Below are positions 24,001-64,000 of a stretch of 64,000 bases of DNA, piece after piece; the first letter of the stretch is position 1, and each line of letters opens with the position of its first letter. The position numbers were made by a program, and so were the translations under genes. Origin of the DNA: Amphiscolops sp. MND2022 (lineage: Eukaryota); the NCBI GenBank assembly GCA_964187785.1, contig OZ076414.1:55676001-55740000 (forward strand). Direction: 5' to 3'. A model generated the notes under the pieces. The model was not told the DNA's origin. It searched no databases and was given only the letters and a program-made list of their open reading frames with translations.

Positions 24001-27000
24001 TGATTGTCTATTCACTGCGTTTAAATTTTATTTCACCGAAATTGTTGATCTGAAAGGTTCTATTTTTCAGAAACTGTTGGCTGCTGTTCACTTTCATCAA
24101 AGTCTACCTTATCCATCATTGAAACAACCTAGTTTGGCAAGAAAAAGATTATTCCGTAAACGATTCAAATTTCACTTTGCTAAAGCTATTTCTTCAAGAA
24201 GTATCCCTGGACCACGATTCAACGCAGACTTAATATCCAAAGTTGAACAAATCGTTTATTCACCTGTGGGTCTCGAATTTGTGAAATTAGTGGATTCACT
24301 ATCGTCTGGACAAAAAGTTACCCTTGATCATTTGCAGACCATCTTATCGCTCAATTAATTTACAAGATGCCGCACGATCGCAAGCAGTGTGACGTTTGCA
24401 ATAAACTTATTGCGAAAAATAATTTTGCTCGTCATATTAAATCTCATCAACACCGATGTCCAAATTGCCCCAAGACATTTGGAAAATTGGTGAGATTACA
24501 ATATCATATTGCAACAAAACATGGTGCAAATCGTGCGAAATCATTCGTTTGCAGAGTGTGTCATCAACCTTTCCAGACCTTTCATCAACTATCTTTCCAC
24601 AATCGTTCCCAACATCAAAATTATCCTTCAGCCTCCAACGTCAACAAGGAAATAGATCTGAGTGAATTCAACTCCGATCCAAATCTCTTGAGTGAGATGC
24701 GTACTGTACAACATTTTCTTACAGACTCAAAAATCCAAACAAGTAGGAAAATTGTTTATAATTTCAGACTGAATTCGCTAGATGAAAAGTTCATTGATGA
24801 GAAATTGGACTTTATCCATTCTGAACTTCCTTGTGCAGCAAAACTCAACTTTTCGTTTGGGTTTGTCTTGCAAAACATTCAGAACCTCGGCGAGTTTCGA
24901 TACTTTTACGCTGAGAATAACAATCCCGTTTTTCATTTCCCAGTCATATTTTCCACATTAGAAGACTTAGAATTTATCAAGGATCGTTATGAAGATGAAA
25001 ACGTCTTCGAGAGTATTATTCAACAGCGTCCAGACACAAAATGGCGATTTTACTGTGTGACTAATGTGACTTTCTTTGTTTATCTGATGCCTCGAGTTGC
25101 ACTTGGTTGTACTGATGTAGATTTACCCAATGCTTTGATTCGCAATAAGAGTGTTAAATGCTTTCTCTCCGACAGTAATAGCAACCCGTATCACGACAAT
25201 TTGTGTCTTTTTCGCGCTATAGCATTCGATCTTCATGGGAGTGAGAACTTGTCGAATAATACCCTTCTCTACTTCACATCGTTCTTGAGCGAAAGTGGAC
25301 AAGATGCAATTGATTTCCCTGGTGTTTCGCCAGAGGAAATTCCTCTAGTAGAAAAAATTACATCAGTTAATTTGAATATGTTTTCTTTGTATTACAATGA
25401 AGAAGGGTTACTACATGGGGAACTCTCACGAAGAAGTGCAGGACTTTTCAAGAAAGGACTATCTTTAGTTCAGTACAACAACCACGTGTGTTGGGTCAGT
25501 AACATCAACACTCTCTTGAAAAACTTCAGATGTCACAACTGTGACAAGTATTTCACAAAGAGCTCTCTATTGGATCGTCATTTGCTGAGTTGTGATGACA
25601 ATGTTAAACACACTTATCCCAATGGACCGTACGAACTTAGAGAAACAATTTTCGAGAAGCTGGAGGATATAAACATTCATGTTGAGACGGAGAGACGATT
25701 GTTCCAAAATTTAGCTGTGTTTGACTTTGAAGCTCTCGCTGTTCCACTAGGAAGCAACACTTCCAATCAAGAGAACACAACATGGATAGCTCGCCATGTT
25801 CCAATAAGCGTAGCTATTTCATCTAATCTTTGCGATCAACCTATTTTTATCTGCTCCAGTGATCCCAGGGAACTTGTCAGTCGGTTTGTCGATGAACTCA
25901 AAAAGATATCGGAAAAGAGTGCAACGCAATACAGAGATTTGTTCAAAAACGAACTCGATGAGATTGCAAAACGTGTTAACCATCTGATAGAAAAACTTCC
26001 TAGAAGAAAAAGACGACAACCTACAAATGATAATCTCCTAGATGAAGCTCACGAAGACAACAACGAAGAGATTGATGATGAAGACATTCAGAATGATCCC
26101 AATCTCATGGGTTTATTTCAGGAAAAAGAAACACTCACTCGAGTTTTATTGGAGTTGGAAAAGTACTGTGACTATCTACCTGTATTCGGATTTAACAGTT
26201 CGAAGTATGATCTGAATCTAATCAAACAGTATCTGTTGGAGTATCTCCTACTAGAACACGAATGTTCTCCATCGGTAATTAAAGTTAGCAACAAGTATAT
26301 TAGTTGCAGTTTCATGGGAATTCAGTTTCTAGACATTTTGAACTTTCTCGGAGGAGCAACATCCCTCGACAAATTTTTGAAAGCTTATGGTGCATCGGAA
26401 GAGAAAGGATTTTTTCCCTATGAATGGTTCGATGATGTAGTTAAATTGGAACAACCGTGTCTGCCCCCAGCTGAAGCGTTTTTCAGTAAATTGAAAAACT
26501 GTAATGTTCTTGATTCTGACTATCAACATTACATTCAGTTATTGAATCAAGGTGTTGCTGTTCCTGATGCTTTGAGAAAGCTTGGTTTGAAGGAAATACC
26601 AAAGACTAGAGAAGAGAACTATGAAGCCTTGGAAAGAATCTGGATTGAAGAAGGCATGTTGACGTTTCGTGATTTCTTGGAATGGTACAATGTTAAAGAT
26701 GTGAAACCTACCCTTGAAGCTATGTTGACGATGATGAAATTTTATCATGATAGAGGTATCGATATGTTGAAGCTTGGTTGTACTCTACCAAATTTAGCAA
26801 ATCGTATTCTTCATTCCTCGACAAACTTCAAATTCTTTCCATTCATCGAATCAGATCGACAGTATGATGATTATATTCGAAAATGGTTAACAGGAGGTCC
26901 ATCTATCATATTCACTCGATATGCGAAAGTGGGGGATACAAAAATCAAAAATTCTTCCAATGTCTGCAAAGCTATTGTTGGAATTGACGCTAGCCAATTG

Positions 27001-30000
27001 TATCCGTTTGCGATGACAAAAGAACTACCCACTGGTCCATACACGAAGTGGGAATTGAAAGATGATAATCGATTTCATCCAAACAGGTTGAGACGGAGTC
27101 ATTTTGAAGAATTGGTTCTCGAATTCCAACAATTCAAACGTCCTGAATGTTGCATACAAACTCAGTTCAATCGAAAGCAAAAGAAGTTTGGAAGATTTTC
27201 TGTGGATGGTTACTGTTCACATTGTTCCACAGTGTTCGAAGCAATGGGATGTTTCTATCATTTTTGTCACTGTCAAGAGAAACGTCGTTTACCTTTAGAA
27301 GACATCGAAAAAGGAGTGAAACGTCGACAATCTGATGCTTTCCGCAGAAGATTCCTCAGAAGTAAGGGATTAAACATTGTTGAAATTTGGGAATGTCAGT
27401 GGTGGAGAATGGTGAAATCAAACGAAGAAGGAGCTAAAGATTTCATGAAAAAAAGTCACCCCTTCATTCCCCCATTATCCGAAGCTAGTCTTCTCCAACG
27501 AATTAGACAGGAACAACTCTTTGGAGTTTTGGACTGCACTATTGAGGTTCCCATGGAGTTGCGAGATCAATTTGCTGATTTTCCACCAATCTTCAAAAAC
27601 TGCGATGTTTCTCGTGAAGATATAGGAACACACATGCAATCCTTCGCGCAGACAAATAACTTATTGAAAAAACCCACTCGCATGTTGATATCGAGTTTTA
27701 AACTAGAGCGGGGTCCAATTATAACACCACTCTTGAACTTTTATCTCGAAAAAGGATTGATTGTTAGAAAAATTCATTGGTTTCTTCAATACAAACCGAA
27801 GAAAACGTTTGAAGGGTTCGTTGCTTCGGTAGTGCAAGCACGCAGAAGAGGTGATGAAAACAAGGACTCTTCTGTTGTGGCTGAGACAATGAAACTGATC
27901 GCGAATTCTTCCTATGGATATCAAATCATGGATCGTTCGAAACACACAAACACCAAGTTTGTTGTGGGATCAGAGGTGGATAAGTTAGTCAATAATCGAA
28001 TGTTCAAGCGTTTCCACCACCTACCTCGCGAAATCTTTGAAGTGGAATTGGGAAAGAGGAAAATTGAACACAAAGAACCTATCATTGTTGGTTTTTTTAT
28101 ACTCCAATATGCTAAACTTGTCATGCTCCAATTATATTACAACTTTTTCAAAATCTTTTGTGATGATACCAAGTTCGAACTGATTGAGATGGATACGGAT
28201 AGTTTATACATGGCAATATCCGAGACGAATATCGAAGAAATCATCAAGCCTGAGATGAAGACTTTGTGGCAAAACTGTCGGTGGGCCGATTGTAGTGAAA
28301 GGGAATTCAAAGCCGATGGCCGATTCAATTTCTTCCCTAGAAACTGTTGCAGTCACCACAACAAATATGATCAAAGAACACCTGGTCTTTTCAAAGAAGA
28401 GTTTCGATGTACTGAAATGGTAGCCTTGTGTTCAAAGACATACTGTTGCTTTGATGCCCAATCAGAGACAGTAAAAATCAGTTGTAAAGGTGTCAACAAA
28501 TCTGCTCTGAAAAATGACAATCCCATGATGAAAATGAGGAGTGTGTTGCAAAAACAGGAGGAAATAACGTCTATTAACAGAGGATTCAGAGTGGTAGAAC
28601 AGAAAGAGATTTGTACATATGAACTGAAGAAACGGGGTCTCTCTTATTTCTATCCTAAACGAAAAGTTCAAGAAGATGGTATTCATACTGAACCTTTAGA
28701 TATTTAGTATTCTTATTCAGTTTTGTTTCAATTTGTACTCCCATTCATTTTCCAATTGGAAAAAGATTTTTTTTTACTTTTGTTTTAATTGGAGTCTGAG
28801 AAACTCGATAGATCAGGTGTATACTTTCCCAAGGAAATGAAAATGTTTGAACCTTGATTCACAACAAAGTCTCTTGTCATTAAGATAATTGAGTATTCAA
28901 ACGAGTCAATCACTTGTAATTTCTCAGTAGGTAATTACCTTCACTGACAAGTAGACTCATAAGCGGGAAACATTCTATCCGGGTAGTCTGATAAGATTGA
29001 CAGGTTCTTTTATTTGAGTAAATAATTACTTTCGCCAACGGGTAGTCTGATAAGATTGACAGGTTCTTTTAGTTGAGTCAATAATTACTTTCGCCAACGG
29101 ATAGGATTGACAGTTTGGAACATAAGCAGCCCCTTGGGGCACTAGAGGAAATGAGGTGTAGTCTGATAAGATTGACAGTTTGGAACATAAGCAGCCCCAA
29201 GGGGCACTAGAGGAAATGACGGGTAGTCTCATAAGATTGACAGGTTCTTTTATTTGAGTAAATAATTACTTTCGCCAACAGCTAGTCTGATAAAATTGAC
29301 AGGTTCTTTTAGTAGAGTAAATAATTACTTTCGCCAACAGCTAGTCTGATAAAATTGACAGGTTCTTTTAGTAGAGTAAATAATTACTTTCGCCAAAGGC
29401 TAGTCTGATAAAATTGACAGGTTCTTTTAGTAGAGTAAATAATTAGTTCATCGAGTCCGATGACCTTCACAGGTTATTTGACTCAAATAGGACAGTTCTC
29501 GGGTAAATGAACTCCTCACTTTATACCGGCCACATTGGAACACATACTACTACTGTCATTCTATTCGAATTTACTGCTTTTTGTGACTCAAAAAATCAGG
29601 CTGTAACTACAACATCTTCGAGACTGCTTAATGTGCAAGAAGCGATTGAGGGAACATTCATTCGAGGGAACAGTAATTGGACACCAATGATGGGGTTAAA
29701 TGATTCAATTAATGAGAAAATTTAACGGGGTTCATTTCTTGGTCATTATTGCCACAAACTTTTAAAACCAATAAAAAGTTTCCTCTAGTCAAATTTGCAC
29801 CATACGCGAAAGGACCATACCCAGGACATAACAAAAATTCTAACCAAATTCCAACTAAAATGTGAAATAATTTTCCAAAATTAGGACTAACTGGAACCCG
29901 CAGTCGTATCTTCCTTTGTTCTTCAGACTGATAGTCTGCTTGACAGTCTCGCCGACCCTGTTGGTGCCAAAGTCAATGCCTCCTTCGGTGCCCTTGGGGA

Positions 30001-46780: not shown

Positions 46781-47599
46781 GAATAAAACGAATTGAAAGG
46801 TCAAAACTGTTTGATAGCGACTCAAGCTCCAATGAAGAAGTCTTGCATGTACTAGTTGAATCTTCGATTGAAGCTGTAGATGTTGTCAAATTGGAAACTC
46901 TCACAAAAGGCAAACCAATTAGGTTTTAGAAAAATCTGTTTTATAGTTACTCTTTGGAAGATGTTGCGTAGCATTGGGTACAATATTCGATTAGCGAATA
47001 GTAGGACACTTTAGAGTTGGAGATCTCAGTGCAAGGCATACATTTCAGTAAACGGCTAAGCGGATCCGGTTCGTGTGGATTCTTTGAAAACTTGTTGTAA
47101 ATGCTGAGTAAAATAAAAAAAACTTTGAAAAACAAACCAACGAAGCTTTCCGTCGTTTTATCTTGTTCACCGTAAAATGAAACCTGATTGTATTTCGTCA
47201 TTTTCTACTTTAGAGTCTTTCACCAACAGATCTTTTATTGCCTTTATTGTCTGCTTTGTGCTGTCTTTTTGTTTGTGTGGTTCAAAAACTCTAAAATGAC
47301 CACGCGATTTTTTTCAATCATTTGAAGTGAAAACTTAGAATTTTTTCTCGTAAAACAAATTTCAAGTGTCAAAAATGTTGAAGCTTTCTGACAAAAGTTG
47401 CAGAGAGTTATTTACAGCTCCGACGCATCGTGCACCGGTGGGCATTGGGATCATGGGAATGCAAGAACTGCTGGTTGTTTGAAGCGGTGTTGTGGTATCT
47501 CCAAATAGTGACCCGCTACCACCATGAATTGTGTATTCTGGTCTTTCTGCTGTAATCAATCCTAGCTGATATTGAAGTCTCAATCTCCCTCCCCGCTTT

Positions 47600-47913
47600 C
47601 CACTGTAGTGACATCCTGCATCCGGCATCAACTGGAACTCATCCGAGAAAGCATCTATTGCGTTCAACTGACAACTCCTGTTCTCACAAAACGTGAAAGA
47701 CGAACACTTCGAACTTTTTAGACATCGGAGTGCGCACTTGCGTTTCGAAGATGCCAGAAAAATTTCAAGGCGATTCGATTTTGCAAGACTTCCTTTGCGA
47801 AAATCATCAAATAGGACAATTTGCCGTTTGGCGTTTTCGCTTGCATCGGTGAATACCAGTGCCAGAGCAATAACAACGTTCCAATTTAAAAATAAAAACA
47901 TAGATCCAAGCAC
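47600..47913 (-). CDS. Secreted PAN/Apple-domain protein, first exon or fragment
   Basis: Hydrophobic leader (VVIALALVFTDA); CALRCLKSSKCSSFTFCENRSCQLN...C PAN cysteine pattern. No canonical donor after the domain, so possibly a pseudogene. Confidence 0.55.
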
Positions 47914-49299: not shown

Positions 49300-52200
49300 A
49301 AAGGCGCAGGAGCCCACATCACGCCAAAAAACATCAACTTAGAGGATTCAAAAACTGATGATGCGTCTACCAGTCACAGTGACCCGGTGCGTCTACCAAA
49401 CGCAAAATTTTGGAAAACCCAAATAACTAGATTCTCGACGACTCCATTTAAATGAAAAATTACGAGTCAGACAGTATATTGTTTCTGACCCTCCTAATGT
49501 TTATTCTACTGAATATTATTCTTCACTTAAAGAAACATCATCAGCTGACTGGCAGCAACAGATGATGACTTCTTCAACATACTTGCACAACTTGCACCAC
49601 GAGTCCAACATACTACAACAAAATACTTCAATTCTACAACCCCTTCCGCTAACAAATGACCATAACCCCTAGTACCCCTACCCAGGGTATGGTTTTCACC
49701 CCTTTTGGGACAACACACTACTTTAACGAGTATCCATTTGGTTTTACAACAATCACCACAAACCAGACAGTGAGATAGGGCCTGACTCTTATGAAATCGG
49801 TAGAATTCTAAACCATACACTGACCGACGCGCTGAACGACTTGTGGCAAACTAGAAGTATTCTCGTCCATCCCCACAGGGGCTGGAGGAGTAGTTTCACA
49901 AAACTAGAACACAGGTGTCTTTACCAACAACAGTAAAAGCACATTCTAAGAAAACTTTAACAACCCGAACAGGTGAACCAGCCTTTGCACCGCTCACCAC
50001 TAACTTAAAAATTGTGCTCTAAGTTGTGCTTTAAGCGTGGACTCAAATTTAAACGACAAATGCTCTATTTTCCATTGGATTTTGGCGAACTAACATAAGA
50101 TGTTCTTGTAGAGACGGGAGCTTTGACTAGTGCGATCCGAGAAGATGACCTACGTCAAATGCGATTACTTGCCCCTCAGTCAATTGTCAAAGAGTGCCAA
50201 GTTCCAAATAATGGTCGCAAATGGACAGCTGTAAAATCCAAAGAGCACTGTCGAATTAAAATTTTAGGTCCACGACATATTTCTATGAATTTTCCGTTTT
50301 TCTCAAAACAAATGAAAACTGCGCACAACAAACACACTAACGTCATGGATCCTATCTGTACCCGCGAGGACGTTACTCTTCCACCCCTGATAGGCAACCC
50401 CTCTTACTGCATCCACAATTGTACAGTGACATCATAGTCTTTGCCATCCTTCAACCGAGCAATGCACTCACCAAGGATGGAGATATTACCTTCTGTGCTG
50501 CTCTAGTCGCACTGACCCAAAGTAAATCTACGATTCACGTGAATACCTTCACTGACCATCCTTATACGCCCAAGAAAAGTTCGCACATAGCAAATTTCTC
50601 TGGCACGACATCAGAACAGATGAAATATGTCAAACCTATAGATCCGGTGACTTTATGGCTCCTTCTACAGGAAAACCTCGAAAACGCCGCCTACTATGTG
50701 AGCAGCTTGAATGAATCCAACAGATTGGAGGACTTAAGACGAACTGCTGGTTCCCTGCACCAGAGGTTCCTAGAGAGCGTCTAAATCACCGACCAATCCA
50801 GTAACGTAACATGAAGGACCTCCAAGGCCTTCAGGATTAGAAAAACGAAACCCTCAGGATGATCCTGAGTCACGAAAACATTTTCTTCCTAATTTTGACT
50901 AGACTGATTCTATGTTGCAATCAGATGAAATAGCTCGCATAGAGGACCTATTGGTCGAATCCCACAAAATATTTGCAAGACATCGGTTCAACATCAGCAA
51001 CAGCTAGGCTTTCGAGGTCAAATTGACACCCAAGGCTGCTTCCCTTGCCTAAAGACAAAGTTTATCAACACCAATTAATCGCAAAGAGGACATCCTTATG
51101 GATATTGCACTTTTGTACCGCTTTGAGATAAAAACAACATTCCCATTTTCTAAATACGACAATCCGATCTGCAAAAGTCCATCTGCAAAAACGAAACTCA
51201 AAAGGAAACTACTACTTTTGGTTGATCCAAGGAAAATCAATTCTTCAATTTGGGATGATTACATCAACAACAATCGTAATGTCCGAACACTCATTGACGC
51301 AGCCCAACAAATCGCAGGAAAAAAGCTATTTTGCAATACCAGACTGCTCTCAGGAATACCACTGCATGCAAATGGCCGTACAAATGTCTATAGAGAAGCT
51401 GGCATTCAATTTTTCGAGCAAAACTTTTGCATATCGCAGACTAGCACGAGGATTCACTCGAGCGCTTTTCATTTTTTTGCGAGGAAATTTAGACAAAGTC
51501 ATCAAAGCCGAACAATTCGCTCAATACGTCGACGACATCGGAATACACGCCAATGATGCAGAACAAATCCTCAAAATCCCAAGCGCATTCTTTGAAGGCA
51601 TACAAAAGCAGGCTTGAAACTAACGATGCCTAAATGTCACTTTGGGATCACGGATATTGATTTTCAAGGACGCACCATCACCCCACTTGGGTTGAGGCCG
51701 CAGCGACCTTCAGTCCAAAATAGCCTGGAAGAGACGTAATTCCGAATTCAAAGAAAGCACTCCAAAGATACCTAAGCTTCTTGAATTCTTACCGCAACTG
51801 TATACCCAGGCTCTCAACAAACACCATTTTTCAAACAAATGAAAAATGAGAAAAAAGTCTTCATAACGACGGCCTCATTGCAAAAATTCACCGAAATAGT
51901 CAAGGCTCATGATCAATGATGCGAACTAGCACTACAACAACCCCTGTTTTACAAACAAATCGCTCTACGGCCGACGCTAATACTACGACAGCAGGTTTTG
52001 CAGTCCTTATCGAAGATGATCCATTGGAGAAGTTTACTTCTACCAGGAAAACCTTCGCACCAGTGGCCTATGGAGACATCACCTTCAGTCCCACCGAATT
52101 AACAAAGTCCAAATATGCTAAAGATATCTTAGTAAAGTTTTTTGGCTTTTTGTTTTCAAAGAATTTGGACATATATTTCTTGGAACCTCGAAAACGGTGA

Positions 52201-53400
52201 TCATACTAACAGACGAAAAATTAGTCACCTACATTTTTTGACAAAAAGAATTCCGCTTACAATTTAGAGTCCATGTGTTCTCGATGGGTAGGTAAAAACC
52301 ACTCTGTCCCTGACTATCTGTCAGGTCTAAAAATGTCGAAAACGTCGAAAGAATCTTTAGACTCCGTGAAGACGTCCCGGCATTATCTATTGAACTTAAT
52401 GTTCAGTCGGCTAGAGTCACAGAGCAAGACCAATACTTCTATACCGACGATGACGAAGAAATCAAAAAACGGCTCTGGCAAAGAAAAAACGAAGCCAGGA
52501 ACAATCCGTCTAATCAGCAGCCTGACATTTTGTTCGAGAAATTTAGTGTTCACTACGCCGCAAACCCTACAAAGTCAACTTCACAAAGACTGTCCAACAA
52601 CAACACCTTCGCTATTGAGCAACCCAACGAAATCCATTTACAGTAATTACGACTTAAACTGCTGAAAGAAGAATACCCTAAGTTATCCTACAGCAAGATC
52701 ATCGCTACCGCAGAGTAGTCAGATTGACCGGCTGTCCATCCAAGATGACAGTATTACTAGAGAGTCTTTCGACGAAACCAGAAACGTGTACAATGAATTT
52801 TGCAACAACGAAGCATCCGTAGACAATAAGTCAATTGGAAAGGACCCTTGTGAGTCTCTAAAACCAACACTTAAATGTCTTCTGGCTAATATAGACGTTA
52901 AGGGCAAAAATACTTTTCTTTGGCAGCACTAAACTACAAGTTCAGGATGTGAATCTTCCAGGATTTTTCATGGAAGGGTACCCAACAACATTTTGAACCA
53001 ACAATTTTTTTATTAATTCCAACCCGAAAATCCCACCAACAATGGATTTTGCGGGAGAATTTCAGCGAGGCACTAAAATAATCATTGATACGACGAAGAA
53101 AAACATGATGCAATCATATCTGAAATACAAGCATTTTACGACCAGAAAGCAAGAACAGCACCATTAAAAGAACAAGTTTTTCGTTTTATACTACAAGCTT
53201 TAGTTGATCATCAGGGTTCAAAAATGCCATTTCAAGAAATCCGGTACAATGGACCGTACGCCATCGAAAAGGTACTACCAAATGGAAACTACTTTGTACG
53301 CAAACTTAATACTAACAAAACACAAATCCCACAAATCCGTCTACGCAAGTATAACCCAAAAGGAAAAGACAACTTAAATCAGACTAACTCAAATCCTAAT
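49300..53400 (+). pseudogene. pol: Decayed Ty3/Gypsy pol (protease remnant-RT-RNase H-integrase)
   Basis: RT: AGKKLFC, CSQ.YH, TFAYRRLA.G, QYVDDIG (51525); RNase H: DA....GFAVLIEDD...PVAYG; integrase tail GPYAIEKVLPN (53251); many stops and frameshifts. Confidence 0.88.
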
Positions 53401-54218
53401 AAGTCCGAAGACTTCAAATACAAGTACTTTTAACTAGGTGATATACGTTTAAAAACTTAATCAGCAGACTAAAGGTGCCAACGATGGCACTGTAACAATA
53501 CATAACAACAACAGCAGAGCAAACTAGATAAATGAAAAGCAGTATTATGAAACAACATGGTACAAGTCTACAAATAAAAACGATTGTACTCAAATTACAG
53601 TTAACCATTACTGCAGCTGGCAAGAAGACTTTCCACGGGTTGAGTGAGCTCTGTATCAGACAACAACTGATTGGGACGTTTTCATGAACAGTGATGTTGC
53701 AAAGAATTAGGAGGCTCATCTGACGTTGACAAAAAAGACAGTGTGTCAACTGCAACATCCCGACTGCAGTTTCCAGCAGGGTCAATTGTATTCGATATTG
53801 AAGCTCGTCCAAAAAGATCAAAATCTGACCAAGGGCTGTAATTATCAGAAGCATTTCCAAAGGTAGGCTCCAAAGACAGGAATCTGAAACAGATGCGTCC
53901 GAGGTCTGGACTTCCACATTACGGCCAACATTGATGAAGAAAGATTGCACTGGAAAAACAGTGTCGGCCAGTTTACTTTTTGAATTGTCAGTCCGAACGG
54001 GACCGAACCGAACTTTACAAGCAACAAAGATTCCTCACGACACAAACAACTGAGCTTTAACGAAGCAAATGTGGACGAGACTTACGTCCAGCCTGGCCAG
54101 AGATGAAACCGACCGCATCAGGGATGACGTGCAAGGATACCCTTGTACTTCACTGAAGAGGAACTCTACGCGCGAGTCGGCCGATCTCCTCCCTATTACG
54201 TTGTTTAAGCGTTTCAAT

Positions 54219-56293
54219 TGTAAAGGTTCGATTGGGTTTAGGAGAAAATTAGTCTTCTGAGATTCTTGGTCAATAGTGTTTAGGAGTTAGTTTGCGACTA
54301 TGCCTTCCTAAACCTTTACAAAAGTTGTCTCTAGGTCTTCCGAGTTCGCAGGAAGGACTTTGTTTCGAGAGAAGAGTTTGAATATATGAAAAGAATTTGA
54401 ATTAGTTCGAGTATTATATTCAACAATGTTTGTTTTTACACAATACGCAAGAATACAATACAAACAGAATAATGTAATCATCCAAGTTGACACAAATATC
54501 CAATCAATAATATCTGATTTGTTTAGCATTCACCACAAATAAATACATCAATTATTTAGGGAGCAATGTTCAGGTAAGTTGTTTAAATACTATAAAAACT
54601 GGAATTTTCTGATCTTATTGTCCAACAATTTGATTAGGACAAGTGTGCTGACTTTTGGCCAGAATTCCAGTCTATTCAGACCGGTTTGGGGTTCCTAGAG
54701 TTCTCAACAATGTAGTGAGAGTTACTAAGTCTATTGACAATTCACGTGACACGTTTGTCACACGTTCTAGCTTATAGGAAGCGAAGAACTAGCTTATAGG
54801 AAGCTGAGAGTTAAATAAAATAGTTTTAGCCTATATGACCAGCCAATTACTAGGTCGAAGACAGGATTGTCTTGAGCATAGACTTATAAGAAGTCTTGCG
54901 AATCTAAGTAAATTAAGGGTCTTATCTAACCAGCATTCGCTAGGTTTTTGTTCGGACAAGATTGCCGATTGGGCTCGATCCAGAGGTTCGGTGCCGTGTT
55001 CTAAGAGTTTTAACCTATTGCAATGGACCAGCAAGTTTGCTAGGTCGAGAGGAAGACAAGTTTGTCTAAAGACTTTGAAGAAGTCTTGTGAGTCTAAGTG
55101 AGTTAAAGGCCTTATTTCAACCAGCAGTTTGCTAGGTTGCTTTTTAGACAAGATTGTCAGAATTCTGTTCAATACTTTATAAGGTTACATGCATTTTACT
55201 TTTTAATCAGTTTGTTTTACTTGCAAGTTAGCTGCAGTTATTGAAATGATCTAGACTAGCAGTCGCTAAGTCTTGACGCAATCGCGTACTAAGAGGAAAG
55301 TGATCTCCGTCGAGAATTGTTTGGGAGCGTTTAGCTCTAGTTAGTTTTCCCTATGATTTTCATAGGAGAACCTTGTCGGTTGTTTGTCTCTTCAGTCACT
55401 AGGACTGGGGGTTGTCTATAAAAGACAGGTAGTAAAAAGGAGCAAAGAAAAAAGAGAGAAATTTTGAGTTGTGAATTTTGAAGTTATTTTCTAAGTTAAA
55501 GAAAATAACTAACCTGAAGTTTGAAGCAAAGATTGGGTCGGAGAGATTTGTTCTCACAAGAGAGAGATTTTTTTGAGAGAGATGATTTATAGCAGAGGCG
55601 AAGAGGAGAGTCAGAGTGAGAGTGTGTGAGAGAGTTATGCGAGAAAATTATTAATCAATTTGCTAGAGTCCGGCTTTTTATACGAGCCGACCGAACGGTA
55701 CAACCAATCAAATCGGTTGGCGTTTTTTATTGGATACGAAATTATTTCGTCATTATCTCGTCAATATTTTGTCCATAATTGGAATCGCATTCACTATTGG
55801 ATGCAACCGAATAGAAGTCGGCGGGGATTGCATCAGCTACCGAATATGTTCGGCTAACCGAGTTGGCTGACGCAACTCTTTGTATTTGTCAGGGGAATTA
55901 ATCCTCTCAAGTGGGGGACTTTGTTCCCACTTGAGAATTCTTTTGTTTAAAATTGAGAATTTGGCCGTACAAGTGGCGCCTATTATTCTCTTTTCAGAGA
56001 TATTTACTGGCACAAGTGGCGTCGCATATTGTCTTTTCAGGGGAGATAAAAGATAATTGTTTGCACAAGTGGCAAGCGTTTTCTTTTGTAGAGGGGAATT
56101 CTCCCTTTCATATGACGCGCAGCTGTAATTTTGTTTATCTCTAAAATTCTTTCAAGCGTGCCTGGAGAATTGAAAGAATTTGAGTAAGAGTTCACAAAAA
56201 TTGAATAAAAAAAATTCTAGCTCCGATTGAATAATTTTCTAAATATGTTTTTTCAAATATTAAAATGAAGAGAAAGTTGTGTTAAACATAACA
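54219..56293 (-). repeat. 3' LTR (2,075 bp)
   Basis: Direct repeat of 61810-63884 (offset 7,591); one mismatch noticed (GACACGTTT vs GACAGGTTT). Confidence 0.96.
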
Positions 56294-56316
56294 ACTCACC
56301 CGGGGTTTAAGAATGA

Positions 56317-57069
56317 TTAAGTTGAAAGGGGGGCATACAGGGTATTTATGACTTTTACTTCGAAAAATATGGAATTGTTTTTTAGCCAGGGGTTCTCTGG
56401 GTTCATGAGTTCATCATGTGGGATGAAGCACAAGATGGTGATTGCTGTGTTGCTGGTTGTGGGAATAGGTTTCTTGAAGCACTCACTGTTATTGTTATTC
56501 GTCACAATGAGCTGTTTGTAGGGTTTGTAAATATTGCCTTGACCAAGGAGGTGTATCTCGATAACGCCTTGGAAGGGCCAAGTGAGTATCTCATCGTAGG
56601 GTCCCGGACACATAGCCAAGCATACTGACATGTATTTCCCTTTGGCAGTGTCGATGCCATAAGGGTAAGCTCGTAGATGAAAGGTGTACCCAAAGGGTTG
56701 TGAGAAGAAGATAGGGCTACAGACGTCTTTTAGGCTATTAGGATCACAATAGGGTGCTCTTACATGAGACAAACTTTTTTCGTATTTTTCAGCATTCTGA
56801 AAAATATCAGAAAATTGATCAAGCCTCCAAATAACTTTGTAGAGGTTCCAATCCCGTGGAATTGATTTCTTTTCGATACGAAGGATTCGCATCTCAAGTG
56901 CGTCGAGCTTTTTACTGATCTCGTGTATCATATCAGAATCAAATGTGTCATCTTTATATTGGGTGATATTGAGTTTTTGTCGAAGCAATAGTAACTCATT
57001 GATTAGGGAGTCCGTAAGGGACCTTTCATCTTCCAATTGTTCAATAAGGGTAGATGAGCTTGTGTTCAT
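56317..57069 (-). CDS. TRAF-like protein: coiled coil + MATH/TRAF-C domain, no RING or zinc fingers (250 aa)
   Basis: VIWRLDQFS, SPIFFSQPFGYTFHLRAYPYG, GKYMSV, GPYDEILTWPF, F.KP, FIPHDEL, LKNNSIFFEVKV follow the TRAF-C consensus. Confidence 0.9.
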   Translation of the reverse strand: MNTSSSTLIEQLEDERSLTDSLINELLLLRQKLNITQYKDDTFDSDMIHEISKKLDALEMRILRIEKKSIPRDWNLYKVIWRLDQFSDIFQNAEKYEKSLSHVRAPYCDPNSLKDVCSPIFFSQPFGYTFHLRAYPYGIDTAKGKYMSVCLAMCPGPYDEILTWPFQGVIEIHLLGQGNIYKPYKQLIVTNNNNSECFKKPIPTTSNTAITILCFIPHDELMNPENPWLKNNSIFFEVKVINTLYAPLST

Positions 57070-57105
57070 CTTGATAAGTCGTTCTGAAATTCAATGGAAA
57101 AGACT

Positions 57106-57615
57106 TTAAATAAATGCTGAAATATCTCTAATAGGTACCACAATCCTCTGGTAGCCTAGGGTCGGATTTTCCAATGTAAATTCTTGACGGTTAGAATCCC
57201 AGAATACAATATTCCAATGATTATATTCGCGTTTCAAGAGATAATTTAATTCGGTCCGGAATCGTGGGTTCCTGGTGAAAATATATTTATTAGCAGCTTC
57301 CTCGTTTTTTCGTTGTTGTCGTAGTTTCTCGTGAGCCGAGAGGGAAGCTTTTTGCCTTTTATGAGAACGCTTAATGGACGTTGAATGAGGTCGTTTAGTG
57401 GGTAGGGGTGTTGTTTTTAAGTTGTTGCGCGGAGGAGGTGGTGCTGTTTCAGTAACACCTTCTGCAATAGTTTCCGTTGAGAGAAACTCTAAATCTGTTG
57501 GGGAGAGCAAGGGGAGATCAAGTAGTCCGCTGTTGTCGAGTTTTGGTTCACCTGTTAATAACTCGATTTCTTCAGCCACAGTTTTGTCGGTTTGCATATT
57601 CTGAATACTAAACAT
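57106..57615 (-). CDS. Unknown accessory protein (163-169 aa): acidic N-terminus, Pro-rich linker, basic NLS-like patch
   Basis: Intact ORF between env and TRAF with its own splice acceptor; KRPH...KRSHKRQK. Confidence 0.7.
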   Translation of the reverse strand: MFSIQNMQTDKTVAEEIELLTGEPKLDNSGLLDLPLLSPTDLEFLSTETIAEGVTETAPPPPRNNLKTTPLPTKRPHSTSIKRSHKRQKASLSAHEKLRQQRKNEEAANKYIFTRNPRFRTELNYLLKREYNHWNIVFWDSNRQEFTLENPTLGYQRIVVPIRDISAFI

Positions 57616-57625
57616 AAAAATACAA

Positions 57626-59734
57626 TTACACTGGAGAAACAGTATGGGTATTCGAAGTAGGGGGCCTACTTATGGCAGGGTAAATGTGTTCGAGGGTTTC
57701 GTGCTCATTGTAATTTTTGTCTGGAGGGGTATCTGAGACCATTGGGTCATGTTGGGGAACTTGATTAAGTGTTGATATCATCGAAACTGTGAATAGATTG
57801 TAGGTTGCTGATAGAAGTATTTTGCCAATACCCCAAGAAGCTCCTGTAACTCGGTGTAGTTCAAATGAGCGAAATGTTATAACAATCACATTGACCAAAA
57901 ACTTGATAAGAAGAAATCCACCAAACCACTGTCCCAATTTGCTAAACCAGTATTCGATAATACCAAAAGTGCTGATGAACTGTTCCTTGAAATATCCTGG
58001 TGATATCATGTTATCCACATAGAAATTTGTACGTGGTGCAAAGTAACCAAATTCGTCTGGTCCTTTATCGGCAGCTGAAGGTATAATGAGTTCTCGTGAA
58101 AACTTTTGCAAGGCATTCCTCGAAGCCGCGCTGATCAGAATATTGTCCCAAAAATCGCTGAGTTGTCCTTTTGTGTACATTCCAGCATCTTGAGACTCAT
58201 CGAAAGCATCTTTTGTGAAAGGAGAAATCTCTTTCGGACCGAAGATAGCAGGTCTATCTCTATGTGTAGGCTCTGGATTTAAAGAAAACCAAGAGTCCTT
58301 GTCTTGCATATCTAGTTGAAAAAGGTTCTTTATTCTATCTGTGCAATTTTGGGTATTTGCGTTAGGGTAGGTTTGTCTGGTGATGGGGTCTACGAATTGA
58401 ATTTGTCCCTTGTAGAATATGGGTATTTTGTCATAACAATTGTTCATGACATGAAGAGGTGATGAAATCAGTGGGCATGAATAGAGCCAGGCGAGACTAC
58501 CATCAGTTTCAAGGAACATGGATCTATTTCCAGTAAGCATGTATCCAGCAAGGCGTGGATTTTCCAAAGACAGCATTAAAATAGTTAGAATTTGGGTTCG
58601 TTCCTGTTCGCACTGGTTTTTCAACATTTGAATTTCGGAAGATTGCAGTGCTCGGGTGCTTTCGAAGAACAGGTAATCCAGTTTTGTTCCAACTTGCATT
58701 TCATAATCCATGTTGAGCCAAGTATTAACGTACTTGTCTTTAACTGTGGCATCTCTGTTGTACACGTAAAGTCCAGGTTTCCCAGAATTGTCTGTGGAGT
58801 ATTGGAGGGTATAAGATCCTCTTGTTATCCCCATCTTTCTTCCGGAGGCCATGTCAAATCCACCGGTATGTATCACAATGTACATGGACTCGTAATTTGT
58901 GGGATATACGTCGTTTGGTTTGTTGCAGAATTTTTGAGGGTAGTTCTTCACTTCGAACAAAAATTTGGAGGAGGAATCGTTGGTGCTCACCATGTGATAC
59001 CTGTGTTCATTCTTTATCATATTCACATGTTCTTCTTTCAATACTGAAAGTACACAGTTATCTGGGTGGTCCCAAATATAAGCGTAGGGATCCAAGGATG
59101 TGCTTTGGCAACCCAGATCGTCAAGTTTGCATGGGAGAGGATTTCCATTTACATTGTGAACTGTTCCATCTCTCAGCTTGACGGGTAGGGTAACATCTTG
59201 AATGTGACTCTCAAAAGTATCTTTGATCATCCAAGACCTTCCAGTGCAATGGTTTCTGTTTTCTTCGCTCTTCTTTCCGTTCGTATAGGACTGAGTTAGT
59301 TTGTTTCCCTTTTTAAACTGGACCATGTGATCCAATATTTGTATCTTTCCCTCTTCTCGTGCTCTTCGACATTGTTCGGGGCTCAAATCGATATCGCTAG
59401 TTATTGTACTTTGTTCTGCATCGATACTCGCATGGTCATGATATCCACAATGCCATTTGAATCTACTGTGCTTTAGGCGGCACATAGTGGCATTGAGTTC
59501 TGTACGAAAGTGCTTCGTGTAGACAGTGATTATGGCTGGGTTGATTTCAATATTTTCTGGGGAAACGTGGCAGGGTCTCACTTGATTGAGCGCATATAAT
59601 TTGTTTTCGGTCATTTCTCCACAGTCATAGTGCGATACACTAAGCCTTTGTGCGATGTCATCCAGGTTTGGATTGGGGAGGCTATTGATTAGGGAGTAGC
59701 ACGTAATGAATAATATCAAAATTTTACTGCACAT
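57626..59734 (-). CDS. env: Envelope fusion glycoprotein, chuvirus (Jingchuvirales)-like class III fusogen (702 aa)
   Basis: Signal peptide; HYDC, C...HCG.H.H, C...C, W...DNC, QCEQER, ENPRLAGY, SCP, CYDKIPI, DAGMYT; C-terminal TM. The cysteine spacing matches chuviral glycoproteins as I recall them. Confidence 0.8.
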   Translation of the reverse strand: MCSKILILFITCYSLINSLPNPNLDDIAQRLSVSHYDCGEMTENKLYALNQVRPCHVSPENIEINPAIITVYTKHFRTELNATMCRLKHSRFKWHCGYHDHASIDAEQSTITSDIDLSPEQCRRAREEGKIQILDHMVQFKKGNKLTQSYTNGKKSEENRNHCTGRSWMIKDTFESHIQDVTLPVKLRDGTVHNVNGNPLPCKLDDLGCQSTSLDPYAYIWDHPDNCVLSVLKEEHVNMIKNEHRYHMVSTNDSSSKFLFEVKNYPQKFCNKPNDVYPTNYESMYIVIHTGGFDMASGRKMGITRGSYTLQYSTDNSGKPGLYVYNRDATVKDKYVNTWLNMDYEMQVGTKLDYLFFESTRALQSSEIQMLKNQCEQERTQILTILMLSLENPRLAGYMLTGNRSMFLETDGSLAWLYSCPLISSPLHVMNNCYDKIPIFYKGQIQFVDPITRQTYPNANTQNCTDRIKNLFQLDMQDKDSWFSLNPEPTHRDRPAIFGPKEISPFTKDAFDESQDAGMYTKGQLSDFWDNILISAASRNALQKFSRELIIPSAADKGPDEFGYFAPRTNFYVDNMISPGYFKEQFISTFGIIEYWFSKLGQWFGGFLLIKFLVNVIVITFRSFELHRVTGASWGIGKILLSATYNLFTVSMISTLNQVPQHDPMVSDTPPDKNYNEHETLEHIYPAISRPPTSNTHTVSPV

Positions 59735-60313: not shown

Positions 60314-60778
60314 TTACAAATCATAAAACTGGATAAGATCCTTGTACAATTTGCTATATTTAGGTGAAGTGACACACTCAATGTCCATGACACTGGTTAA
60401 TTCACCTAACACAAGCAGATCAAATTTGGTGATGTGCCTTTCAGGTCTCTGTTCGTATGACAGGAGGGAAGCGGCTAGTGACGCGTATAGAAGGGTGTCC
60501 TTGTAGATTTGTTTCTGATACTTTTTGTCAGGCAGGTCGTAACGTTCAAAGTGAACGCAAATCTTGAATTCGTAGGTCCAAGTCCACCGAATATAGGTGA
60601 TCAAAAATTGTTTGTTGTTTTCAGCAACGAAAATAGTCCAGGGGCAATTGAAACTGAGTTCTTCGTACTTTTTCTCCCAGAGGGTATCCCAGTAAATAGT
60701 AGGAGGAGGATAAATTTGAGTAATCCTCGGTTTTGTTCTTTTGCGTGAGTCTTTTTTGAGAATAGACTGTGGGTTCAT
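60314..60778 (-). CDS. Unknown ORF B (154 aa from the first ATG)
   Basis: ATG overlaps the ORF A stop (TAATG at 60780-60776); aromatic-rich, globular-looking. Confidence 0.65.
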   Translation of the reverse strand: MNPQSILKKDSRKRTKPRITQIYPPPTIYWDTLWEKKYEELSFNCPWTIFVAENNKQFLITYIRWTWTYEFKICVHFERYDLPDKKYQKQIYKDTLLYASLAASLLSYEQRPERHITKFDLLVLGELTSVMDIECVTSPKYSKLYKDLIQFYDL

Positions 60779-60996: not shown

Positions 60997-61021
60997 ACGA
61001 CGAACTGAAATAGTCAAAAGT

Positions 61022-61795
61022 TTTTTACCCACGGCAGAGATTGATACTATGATCGTTACCGTGCTGAAAAGTTATTTACCCACGGCAGAGATTGATACTT
61101 TGATCGTTACCGTGCTCGTTTTTGTGAAAAATTCTTTACCCACGGCAGAGATTGATGCTATGATCGTTACCGTGCTGAAAAGTTATTTACCCACGGCAGA
61201 GATTGATGCTATGATCGTTACCGTGCTGAAAAGTTATTTACCCACGGCAGAGATTGATGCTATGATCGTTACCGTGCTGAAAAGTTATTTACCCACGGCA
61301 GAGATTGATGCTATGATCGTTACCGTGCTGAAAAGTTATTTACCCACGGCAGAGATTGATGCTATGATCGTTACCGTGCTGAAAAGTTATTTACCCACGG
61401 CAGAGATTGATACTATGATCGTTACCGTGCTGAAAAGTTATTTACCCACGGCAGAGATTGATACTTTGATCGTTACCGTGCTCGTTTTTGTGAAAAATTC
61501 TTTACCCACGGCAGAGATTGATGCTATGATCGTTACCGTGCTCAATTTTGTGAAAAAGTTATTTACCCACGGCAGAGATTGATACTTTGATCGTTACCGT
61601 GCTCGTTTTTGTGAAAAATTCTTTACCCACGGCAGAGATTGATGCTATGATCGTTACCGTGCTGAAAAGTTATTTACCCACGGCAGAGATTGATGCTATG
61701 ATCGTTACCGTGCTGAAAAGTTATTTACCCACGGCAGAGATTGATGCTATGATCGTTACCGTGCTGAAAAGTTATTTACCCACGGCAGAGATTGA
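61022..61795. repeat. Tandem array of 15 units (51 bp, some 60-61 bp) in the element's leader
   Basis: Unit GCTATGATCGTTACCGTGCTGAAAAGTTATTTACCCACGGCAGAGATTGAT. Confidence 0.93.
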
Positions 61796-61806
61796 TGGTC
61801 GCACCA
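61796..61806 (-). promoter_or_regulatory. Primer-binding site (TGGTGCGACCA)
   Basis: Begins with TGG, 3 nt after the 5' LTR end; same 14-mer as 37393-37406. Confidence 0.8.
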
Positions 61807-61809
61807 GTT

Positions 61810-63884
61810 TGTAAAGGTTCGATTGGGTTTAGGAGAAAATTAGTCTTCTGAGATTCTTGGTCAATAGTGTTTAGGAGTTAGTTTGCGACTATGCCTTCCT
61901 AAACCTTTACAAAAGTTGTCTCTAGGTCTTCCGAGTTCGCAGGAAGGACTTTGTTTCGAGAGAAGAGTTTGAATATATGAAAAGAATTTGAATTAGTTCG
62001 AGTATTATATTCAACAATGTTTGTTTTTACACAATACGCAAGAATACAATACAAACAGAATAATGTAATCATCCAAGTTGACACAAATATCCAATCAATA
62101 ATATCTGATTTGTTTAGCATTCACCACAAATAAATACATCAATTATTTAGGGAGCAATGTTCAGGTAAGTTGTTTAAATACTATAAAAACTGGAATTTTC
62201 TGATCTTATTGTCCAACAATTTGATTAGGACAAGTGTGCTGACTTTTGGCCAGAATTCCAGTCTATTCAGACCGGTTTGGGGTTCCTAGAGTTCTCAACA
62301 ATGTAGTGAGAGTTACTAAGTCTATTGACAATTCACGTGACAGGTTTGTCACACGTTCTAGCTTATAGGAAGCGAAGAACTAGCTTATAGGAAGCTGAGA
62401 GTTAAATAAAATAGTTTTAGCCTATATGACCAGCCAATTACTAGGTCGAAGACAGGATTGTCTTGAGCATAGACTTATAAGAAGTCTTGCGAATCTAAGT
62501 AAATTAAGGGTCTTATCTAACCAGCATTCGCTAGGTTTTTGTTCGGACAAGATTGCCGATTGGGCTCGATCCAGAGGTTCGGTGCCGTGTTCTAAGAGTT
62601 TTAACCTATTGCAATGGACCAGCAAGTTTGCTAGGTCGAGAGGAAGACAAGTTTGTCTAAAGACTTTGAAGAAGTCTTGTGAGTCTAAGTGAGTTAAAGG
62701 CCTTATTTCAACCAGCAGTTTGCTAGGTTGCTTTTTAGACAAGATTGTCAGAATTCTGTTCAATACTTTATAAGGTTACATGCATTTTACTTTTTAATCA
62801 GTTTGTTTTACTTGCAAGTTAGCTGCAGTTATTGAAATGATCTAGACTAGCAGTCGCTAAGTCTTGACGCAATCGCGTACTAAGAGGAAAGTGATCTCCG
62901 TCGAGAATTGTTTGGGAGCGTTTAGCTCTAGTTAGTTTTCCCTATGATTTTCATAGGAGAACCTTGTCGGTTGTTTGTCTCTTCAGTCACTAGGACTGGG
63001 GGTTGTCTATAAAAGACAGGTAGTAAAAAGGAGCAAAGAAAAAAGAGAGAAATTTTGAGTTGTGAATTTTGAAGTTATTTTCTAAGTTAAAGAAAATAAC
63101 TAACCTGAAGTTTGAAGCAAAGATTGGGTCGGAGAGATTTGTTCTCACAAGAGAGAGATTTTTTTGAGAGAGATGATTTATAGCAGAGGCGAAGAGGAGA
63201 GTCAGAGTGAGAGTGTGTGAGAGAGTTATGCGAGAAAATTATTAATCAATTTGCTAGAGTCCGGCTTTTTATACGAGCCGACCGAACGGTACAACCAATC
63301 AAATCGGTTGGCGTTTTTTATTGGATACGAAATTATTTCGTCATTATCTCGTCAATATTTTGTCCATAATTGGAATCGCATTCACTATTGGATGCAACCG
63401 AATAGAAGTCGGCGGGGATTGCATCAGCTACCGAATATGTTCGGCTAACCGAGTTGGCTGACGCAACTCTTTGTATTTGTCAGGGGAATTAATCCTCTCA
63501 AGTGGGGGACTTTGTTCCCACTTGAGAATTCTTTTGTTTAAAATTGAGAATTTGGCCGTACAAGTGGCGCCTATTATTCTCTTTTCAGAGATATTTACTG
63601 GCACAAGTGGCGTCGCATATTGTCTTTTCAGGGGAGATAAAAGATAATTGTTTGCACAAGTGGCAAGCGTTTTCTTTTGTAGAGGGGAATTCTCCCTTTC
63701 ATATGACGCGCAGCTGTAATTTTGTTTATCTCTAAAATTCTTTCAAGCGTGCCTGGAGAATTGAAAGAATTTGAGTAAGAGTTCACAAAAATTGAATAAA
63801 AAAAATTCTAGCTCCGATTGAATAATTTTCTAAATATGTTTTTTCAAATATTAAAATGAAGAGAAAGTTGTGTTAAACATAACA
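61810..63884 (-). repeat. 5' LTR (2,075 bp)
   Basis: TGTTATG...TTTACA on the minus strand; TATAAAAA at ~63273-63266, CCAAT boxes, donor CAG|GTTAGT at 63105/63104. Confidence 0.96.
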
Positions 63885-64000
63885 CAATACTGACAGTTTT
63901 GTTTTTCTTTTCTAACTAGTCCCTCTCAGCTCTTCCTCCGCTGGCAGTCTCCAACTTTGGGTCAAGCTTGGACCTGTAAATGAAGTCAGTGAAAGAAAGG

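Follow-up and report, generated by a model that had tools for sequence, protein, structure and literature searches.

A RING-less TRAF gene on an env-bearing Gypsy retrotransposon of the acoel Amphiscolops and its possible action on host signalling

The TRAF gene and the element around it

The window analysed here, a stretch of 64,000 nucleotides from the acoel Amphiscolops sp. MND2022, carries on its minus strand (57069-56317) a single ORF of 250 amino acids, intronless and uninterrupted, enclosed by a pair of long terminal repeats (Table 1). Pfam searches matched its product to TRAF-mep_MATH (E=5.5e-22) and MATH_2 (E=8.1e-22, model positions 3-136 of 136), and returned no RING or zinc-finger family for it. 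The closest solved structures were those of TRAF1/5/2 (sequence E~1e-12, Foldseek E~1e-11), and an AlphaFold model (mean pLDDT 69.7) placed two helices ahead of the strands of the TRAF-C sandwich. The protein has the architecture of the TRAF family, a TRAF-N coiled coil joined to a TRAF-C beta-sandwich. ORF, Pfam, structure and LTR analyses confirmed the preliminary description of the window, which had placed an intronless 250-aa ORF with coiled coil and complete TRAF-C domain inside LTRs. The splice acceptor claimed for this gene was also found at exactly the distance given, as the end of a TTTCAG 14 nt 5' of the ATG, and is regarded as a candidate acceptor. A YAG at this position was present in all 18 copies displayed, from both subfamilies of the lineage (22 loci were examined, 4 of them outside the pattern), and 12 of these 18 copies belong to the subfamily in which synonymous sites are near saturation.

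Table 1. Features of the TRAF-bearing element in the window, and one example of the palindromic family D from elsewhere in the genome.
Feature	Position	Strand	Remarks
5' LTR, 2075 bp, TG...CA	61810..63884	-	self-alignment and flanks; target duplication ATTG 63885-63888
Truncated primer-binding site, 11 nt	61796..61806	-	gag-pol deletion junction directly behind
Tandem array, 51/61-bp units	61013..61797	-	between pol and env in full copies
154-aa ORF	60314..60778	-	conserved in lineage A; dN/dS ~0.11 between subfamilies
env, 702-aa viral fusion glycoprotein	57626..59734	-	Monjiviricetes_fusion PF24664, E=1.5e-39; dN/dS 0.016-0.027
163-aa ORF	57106..57597	-	between env and TRAF in all four lineages; own candidate acceptor
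Candidate splice acceptor AG	57084..57085	-	14 nt before TRAF ATG; site kept in A1 and A2
Intronless RING-less TRAF	56317..57069	-	helices 3-38 and 45-68, TRAF-C 78-243
Plus-strand primer-position motif, not purine-rich	56294..56308	-	just before 3' LTR; nearly identical in A and B
3' LTR	54219..56293	-	1 mismatch to 5' LTR; target duplication ATTG 54215-54218
Family D example (L107+L066+L100)	G000:C1:103.76-103.78 Mb		

The window copy reads, in order, LTR, truncated primer-binding site, tandem array, 154-aa ORF, env, 163-aa ORF, TRAF and LTR. Since its two LTRs (2075 bp, TG...CA) differ by 1 mismatch and are flanked by the 4-bp duplication ATTG, the insertion is very young. The copy has no gag-pol, about 10.4 kb being missing right after the primer-binding site by comparison with a fuller copy (L022+L093), and its Gypsy identity was therefore taken from sister copies. 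Pol was found upstream in 18 of 19 of these and gag only in 1 of 19; their pol has the Gypsy-type order PR-RT-RH-IN behind gag, with Tf2-like SH3/IN C-terminal matches. By domain order, LTRs, target duplication and primer site, the sequence identifies the element as a Ty3/Gypsy LTR retrotransposon. The env ORF, 3' of pol, codes for a viral fusion glycoprotein in lineages A and B (PF24664, E~1e-39), of a class that we take to be gB-like. Neither small ORF had a Pfam match, and the 163-aa ORF also had no usable match in the Atlas; the latter is 42% identical between lineages A and B and 38-47% identical to its counterparts in C and H, with a dN/dS of ~0.10.

Other features were observed in the same window. 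A decayed Gypsy pol at ~50000-54200 on the plus strand (RVT_1, E=0.0012) is the site into which the TRAF element was inserted, and an ORF with a PAN domain at 47362-47901 on the minus strand is probably an exon of a host gene. A Polinton/adintovirus-like element spans ~15100-29550, with an rve integrase at 18032-19000 and an A32-like ATPase at 19686-20450. A 1446-aa polymerase-like ORF and capsid-like and protease-like ORFs, which had no Pfam match, were presumptively assigned to it by motif.

Copies, lineages and constraint

Copies of the window TRAF at 98-100% identity were located in at least 35 places, 34 of them without a stop, and at least 13 further near-complete copies at 82-89% identity; these counts are lower bounds, from the scoring of 150 of 513 candidates. 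Some old TRAF copies of this lineage, called A, are broken. The cassette of env, small ORF and TRAF surrounded the gene at 39 of 39 other lineage-A loci examined. Three further LTR lineages (B, C and H) have the layout and primer site of A: full copies of all four have in common the same primer-binding site, longer than that of the window copy, and the order env, 163-aa ORF, TRAF, LTR is constant. Lineage B has 98 matches in the genome, lineage C has 58 near-complete copies among 126 matches, and 3 copies of lineage H were examined. Env and the small ORF adjoined TRAF at 35 of 35 loci checked for B outside family D (31 distinct places; family D is described below) and at 15 of 15 for C. In B and C, TRAF shows apparent stop-start coupling to the upstream ORF, whose stop in C overlaps the TRAF start (ATGA). 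For pol as for TRAF, C goes together with H and, with weak support, A goes with B.

In two single copies of lineage B (L085:5221-6672 and L086:2907-4412) the small upstream ORF and TRAF stand in one frame, likely through individual frameshifts. A PAM2-like motif opens the TRAFs of lineages C and H (L117:2882-3823 and L257; PF07145 E=0.0077 in C, below the cut-off), and the start of the protein P0077, from another dataset, resembles it. Relatives from other datasets comprise P0003 (59% identity), P0061 (44%) and the families P0077/P0078/P0093; we infer that relatives of these types are element-borne. The best matches to P0061, P0078 and P0090 in this genome are 44%, 37% and 42% identical, respectively, so that none of the three has a close copy here. 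The 78 loci recovered by a metagenome scan held generic TRAFs, and neither env nor pol accompanied any of them.

Constraint on the protein was estimated by simple pairwise counts rather than codon models. Between subfamilies A1 and A2 the dN/dS of TRAF was 0.041-0.048 at dS ~1.4, in pairs that share one branch and with 6 of 8 A2 copies intact; in the same comparison gag gave 0.056, pol 0.031 and env 0.016-0.027. Among 19 A1 copies of TRAF, 14 synonymous and 9 nonsynonymous variants were counted, on 156 and 594 sites, respectively (p=2e-5). Values were 0.10-0.13 in lineage B (11 of 12 intact pairs) and 0.11-0.17 in lineage C (3 divergent pairs), while H/H2 was uninformative with dS near 0. By these codon comparisons, the LTR-borne TRAF is under strong purifying selection and is no passenger, its protein being maintained by the element's own success. 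Presence in this copy alone with neutral evolution, which the preliminary description had named as evidence against its reading, is the opposite of what was found.

TRAF is the fastest-diverging gene compared: identity between lineages is 22-38% for TRAF, 44-59% for gag, 57-75% for env and 56-77% for pol, whereas host orthologs of the gene stay 72-94% alike. Fast divergence of the element gene beside stable host orthologs is the pattern expected of a host-interaction gene. Values of dS were unequal within a single pair of subfamilies (A1/A2: gag 0.48, pol 0.72, env and TRAF 1.4; C1/C2: env 0.61, TRAF 1.94), which suggests module swapping between subfamilies.

A cellular relative and the origin of the gene

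The closest cellular gene is single-copy (G000:C3:90.87 Mb) and codes for 493 aa in four predicted exons of 90, 713, 474 and 205 nt, with three predicted GT-AG introns of consistent phases. Its N-terminus, the 5' end being a gene model, contains the remnant of one zinc finger, and a search of ~52 kb upstream on the gene's strand revealed no RING-like motif. Its orthologs (72-94% identity) include a named one from the acoel Convolutriloba macropyga, RefSeq XP_075250303.1, of 482 aa, in which only MATH domains exceed the cut-off. Judged from these models, the cellular parent is RING-less, as is the Convolutriloba ortholog, and loss of the RING through capture, which the preliminary description implied, is not supported. 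Elsewhere in the genome, a gene with RING and zf-TRAF domains lies at C10:42.09 Mb; no TRAF-C exon was found in 28 kb downstream, so that it is at most a candidate for a full TRAF.

The TRAF-C domain of the window protein is 40% identical to that of the cellular parent and 26-31% identical to those of other TRAFs. In three trees, built from 42, 28 and 25 rows (near-duplicates and long rows were removed for the latter two), the window protein, the parent and its orthologs stood apart from canonical TRAFs with support of 98/97, 99/96 and 99/97; the split sets the parent, its orthologs and all element copies together and is starred for support in each tree. Lineage A was the first branch within this acoel group (97/91, 83/84 and 77/87), with little resolution among the rest. 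The phylogeny proposed earlier to find an intron-containing parent thus yielded a single-copy, four-exon relative, but as A branches first, another or a lost paralog may have been the donor rather than the gene identified. A single origin of all LTR-type rows gave p-AU 0.069, and a grouping of A with B gave 0.24 and 0.17. One ancient capture rather than several would fit the shared position of the gene, and is neither shown nor rejected by these tests. Lineage B is closest to the host-lineage gene at its N-terminus (39-43%); a recent re-capture in B from this genome's own host lineage was weakly rejected on TRAF-C (p-AU 0.043).

The gene is also found in a second class of mobile element, family D, which forms a palindrome of 18 kb with arms of ~9 kb, AGTAGT...ACTACT ends and a 6-bp target duplication, the ends and duplication being what we take to be Polinton hallmarks. 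It has more than 100 matches in the genome, weak similarity to the Polinton of the window (E=2e-5) and an arm ORF that matched only hypothetical clusters in the Atlas. The TRAF in its central loop is 58% identical to the host gene and weakly constrained (dN/dS 0.45-0.82). The last intron of the parent (phase 2) was present in 9 of 12 family D loci checked and absent from A, B, C and H. The other parent intron spanned by these copies is absent from the LTR lineages and also from D, and is therefore less informative. As the four LTR lineages lack the last intron, which parent and D retain, the LTR-type gene appears to have been captured through RNA, and family D likely represents a separate, DNA-level capture. 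The zinc-finger remnant, found only in the cellular gene, favours transfer from host to element. The proposal of a transduced host gene was thereby borne out, by an intron-free TRAF on a Gypsy element and a cellular relative with introns, and it is very likely that the TRAF is a selected, host-derived gene of the element.

Proposed function, rival readings and known systems

We propose that the mRNA of an already RING-less host TRAF was likely copied into an env-bearing clade of Gypsy retrotransposons, where the ORF is retained as a selected accessory gene behind env and the 163-aa ORF. It would be expressed from a sub-genomic message, by the candidate acceptor in A and by stop-start coupling in B and C. 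The predicted trimer would then likely compete for the partners of the parent TRAF, and this competition may damp a signal of stress, death or defence, independent of NF-kB, in cells that produce the element's particles or are reached by them. In planarians, knockdown of a TRAF raises caspase-3 (PMC7586133). That the element TRAF acts on host signalling, four LTR lineages thereby tampering with stress or defence, is probable. Overall, the odds that it does so as an antagonist rather than as an activator are about even. Antagonism is not the default, since ISKNV ORF111L, the only viral TRAF to have been characterised, possesses a RING and is pro-apoptotic (PMC3352826). The explanation as a whole, a captured accessory gene that competes with the parent TRAF to damp a signal, is the best available, and we give it about an even chance.

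A homotrimer of the window protein was predicted with a score of 0.72, against 0.00 for the best of 3 controls, a result that the existence of solved TRAF trimers may explain; at least 69% of contacts agreed between runs, and pLDDT was at least 80. The same mark was attained by 21 of 30 microbial and 7 of 16 animal pairs, as against 0 of 23 single chains. The serine triad of TRAF2 type is absent, the element having S/E/C at these positions and the parent I/A/C, which makes canonical PxQxT binding unlikely, and the protein falls outside the TRAF1/2/3/5 receptor-binding class. Of the other TRAF2 hot spots, the element keeps R393/Y395 (R133/Y135 here) and F456, with C in place of F410 and I in place of C469, on TRAF2 residue offsets that are partly presumed. 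The hot spots are those of PMC6125299, mapped via TRAF1/5 alignments. Of the two properties that the preliminary description had required of the protein, trimerisation is predicted and binding of canonical TRAF motifs is unlikely. The groove differs from that of a parent-type protein at 8-10 of 18 sites, and its conservation does not significantly exceed that of the other sites (p=0.19), so that it gives no evidence of ligands common with the parent; at the trimer interface, 5-8 of 22 sites match host orthologs (p=0.23 against background), which lends no support to mixed trimers with the parent.

The strongest rival to competition with the parent is that the TRAF fold now serves the element's life cycle, its trimer being a scaffold on which env is trafficked, particles are assembled or RNA is handled, and has lost its contact with host signalling. 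The constant place of TRAF, which in every lineage comes right after env and the 163-aa ORF, the apparent stop-start coupling in B and C, the divergence of groove and interface from the host and the sub-threshold PAM2-like start in C and H would all suit such a role. The divergence of a structural part, however, should not exceed that of gag or env, yet TRAF is the fastest; no such gene features in the descriptions of many env-carrying Gypsy elements (PMC13524379), and a Polinton-like element without env carries a TRAF too. Such repurposing is considered unlikely.

Alternatively, the protein could be an activating mimic, an unregulated adaptor that, in stem or germ cells, turns on a pathway of survival or proliferation and so resembles an oncogene more than a decoy. 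As the parent itself is RING-less, absence of the RING does not imply inhibition; RING-less TRAF1 can be a positive or a negative scaffold (PMC4858697), and the ISKNV TRAF activates its pathway (PMC3352826). Lineage A, however, has lost most of the parent's N-terminal region, including a block kept in B and D, and this would be the part that recruits effectors, a role deduced from PMC6125299. We hold this reading to be quite unlikely.

The preliminary description had instead pointed to a decoy that would arise by cutting the RING off a canonical TRAF, a dominant negative in the TNFR/TLR route to NF-kB. The missing RING, the predicted trimer and the retained R133/Y135 of the polar pocket agree with it, as do the RING plus zf-TRAF gene and 12 TIR-domain matches in the genome. 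But the parent and its ortholog were already RING-less, the serine triad is missing from both element and parent, and acoels are reported to be without TLR, MyD88, IRAK and NF-kB (PMC12849515), a source that calls the acoel immune pathway unknown and in whose text neither "TRAF" nor "TNF" occurs. Our own searches of the genome with PF00554 (RHD) and PF00020 (TNFR) gave no match; since NFAT-type genes, which all acoels are reported to have, likewise escaped the RHD search, neither blank is informative. The TIR-domain matches (L132, G000:C13:29.80 Mb and others) lie in some cases in long frames of 385-633 aa, and the genes are candidate upstream partners in an animal reported to have no TLRs. 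The NF-kB setting is thus not upheld, and the dominant-negative reading is very improbable. A decoy role in a looser sense may still be plausible: the element TRAF would be a shortened copy of a lineage-specific scaffold rather than a RING-cut TRAF2/6 directed against NF-kB. A neutral passenger or retro-pseudogene amplified with the element, to which broken old copies and the dN/dS of only 0.45-0.82 in the Polinton-like family might point, has next to no likelihood. As far as constraint on the protein goes, it is refuted in the LTR lineages by dN/dS counts of ~0.045 at dS 1.4 in A and 0.10-0.17 in B and C and by retention in four lineages with saturated synonymous sites.

The earlier statement that no Gypsy-type element with a TRAF had been described did not stand. 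In planarians, MATH_TRAF_C occurs together with BIR and BCL2-like domains in Burro1/GYPSM1, and as an accessory ORF in a relative from Dugesia; the authors suggested that these domains meddle with apoptosis and ubiquitination (PMC6431247). Burro1/GYPSM1 and the Burro-like element of Dugesia tigrina resemble the acoel element in being Gypsy LTR elements with an env-like region and MATH_TRAF_C, in a separate accessory ORF in D. tigrina; Burro, however, exceeds 30 kb, and its TRAF-C, which is accompanied by BIR, BCL2-like and ankyrin domains, lies within a giant ORF1 or upstream of it (PMC6431247). The acoel element, compared by description, is ~20 kb, with a stand-alone TRAF with coiled coil as last ORF, a separate env and an identifiable parent.

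Invertebrate errantiviruses are usually drawn as gag-pol-env. The gB-type Ty3/gypsy "ancient errantiviruses" (PMC13524379) are like the acoel element in their LTR-gag-pol-env order, multiple intact copies and fusion glycoprotein, and unlike it in that the latter has extra ORFs around env, TRAF among them; the text of that paper contains neither "TRAF" nor "acoel", and its 7 supplements contain no TRAF and none of five acoel taxon names. Mammalian TRAF1 (PMC6125299), the top PDB match, is likewise RING-less with coiled coil and TRAF-C, but by the trees it is not orthologous, and it keeps the TRAF2-type hot spots that element and parent do not. ISKNV (iridovirus) ORF111L is also a host-derived TRAF in a viral genome, but that of a large DNA virus, with a RING, TRADD binding and apoptosis through caspase-8 (PMC3352826). 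The ORF3s of bdelloid LTR elements are likewise captured 3' accessory ORFs, common to unrelated element classes; they code for a GDSL esterase or a DEDDy nuclease and show no significant departure from neutrality within the genome (PMC5408684), in contrast to the strong constraint and traceable host gene of the acoel TRAF. No account of an acoel element with a TRAF was found in the mainly open-access literature covered.

A TRAF on a Gypsy element was thus already known from planarian Burro, and the acoel case adds a RING-less parent, retention in four lineages and a second carrier class. An adaptor of host signalling is retained as accessory gene throughout the clade, in the way of complex viruses, and here the parent is traceable and the constraint measurable. 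The presence of a host adaptor in two classes of mobile element marks what such elements may need to overcome and offers a bait for pull-down experiments; with the planarian precedent, it suggests repeated pressure on TRAF signalling in stem-cell-rich worms. A bolder reading, which we offer tentatively as rather doubtful, is that an antiviral or cell-death checkpoint independent of NF-kB has the RING-less TRAF of acoels as its hub, and that two unrelated classes of virus-like element, an errantivirus clade and a Polinton-like element, captured this TRAF separately and diversified it into antagonists, in convergence with planarian Burro. If this were true, the partners of the element TRAF would expose the missing immune signalling of acoels.
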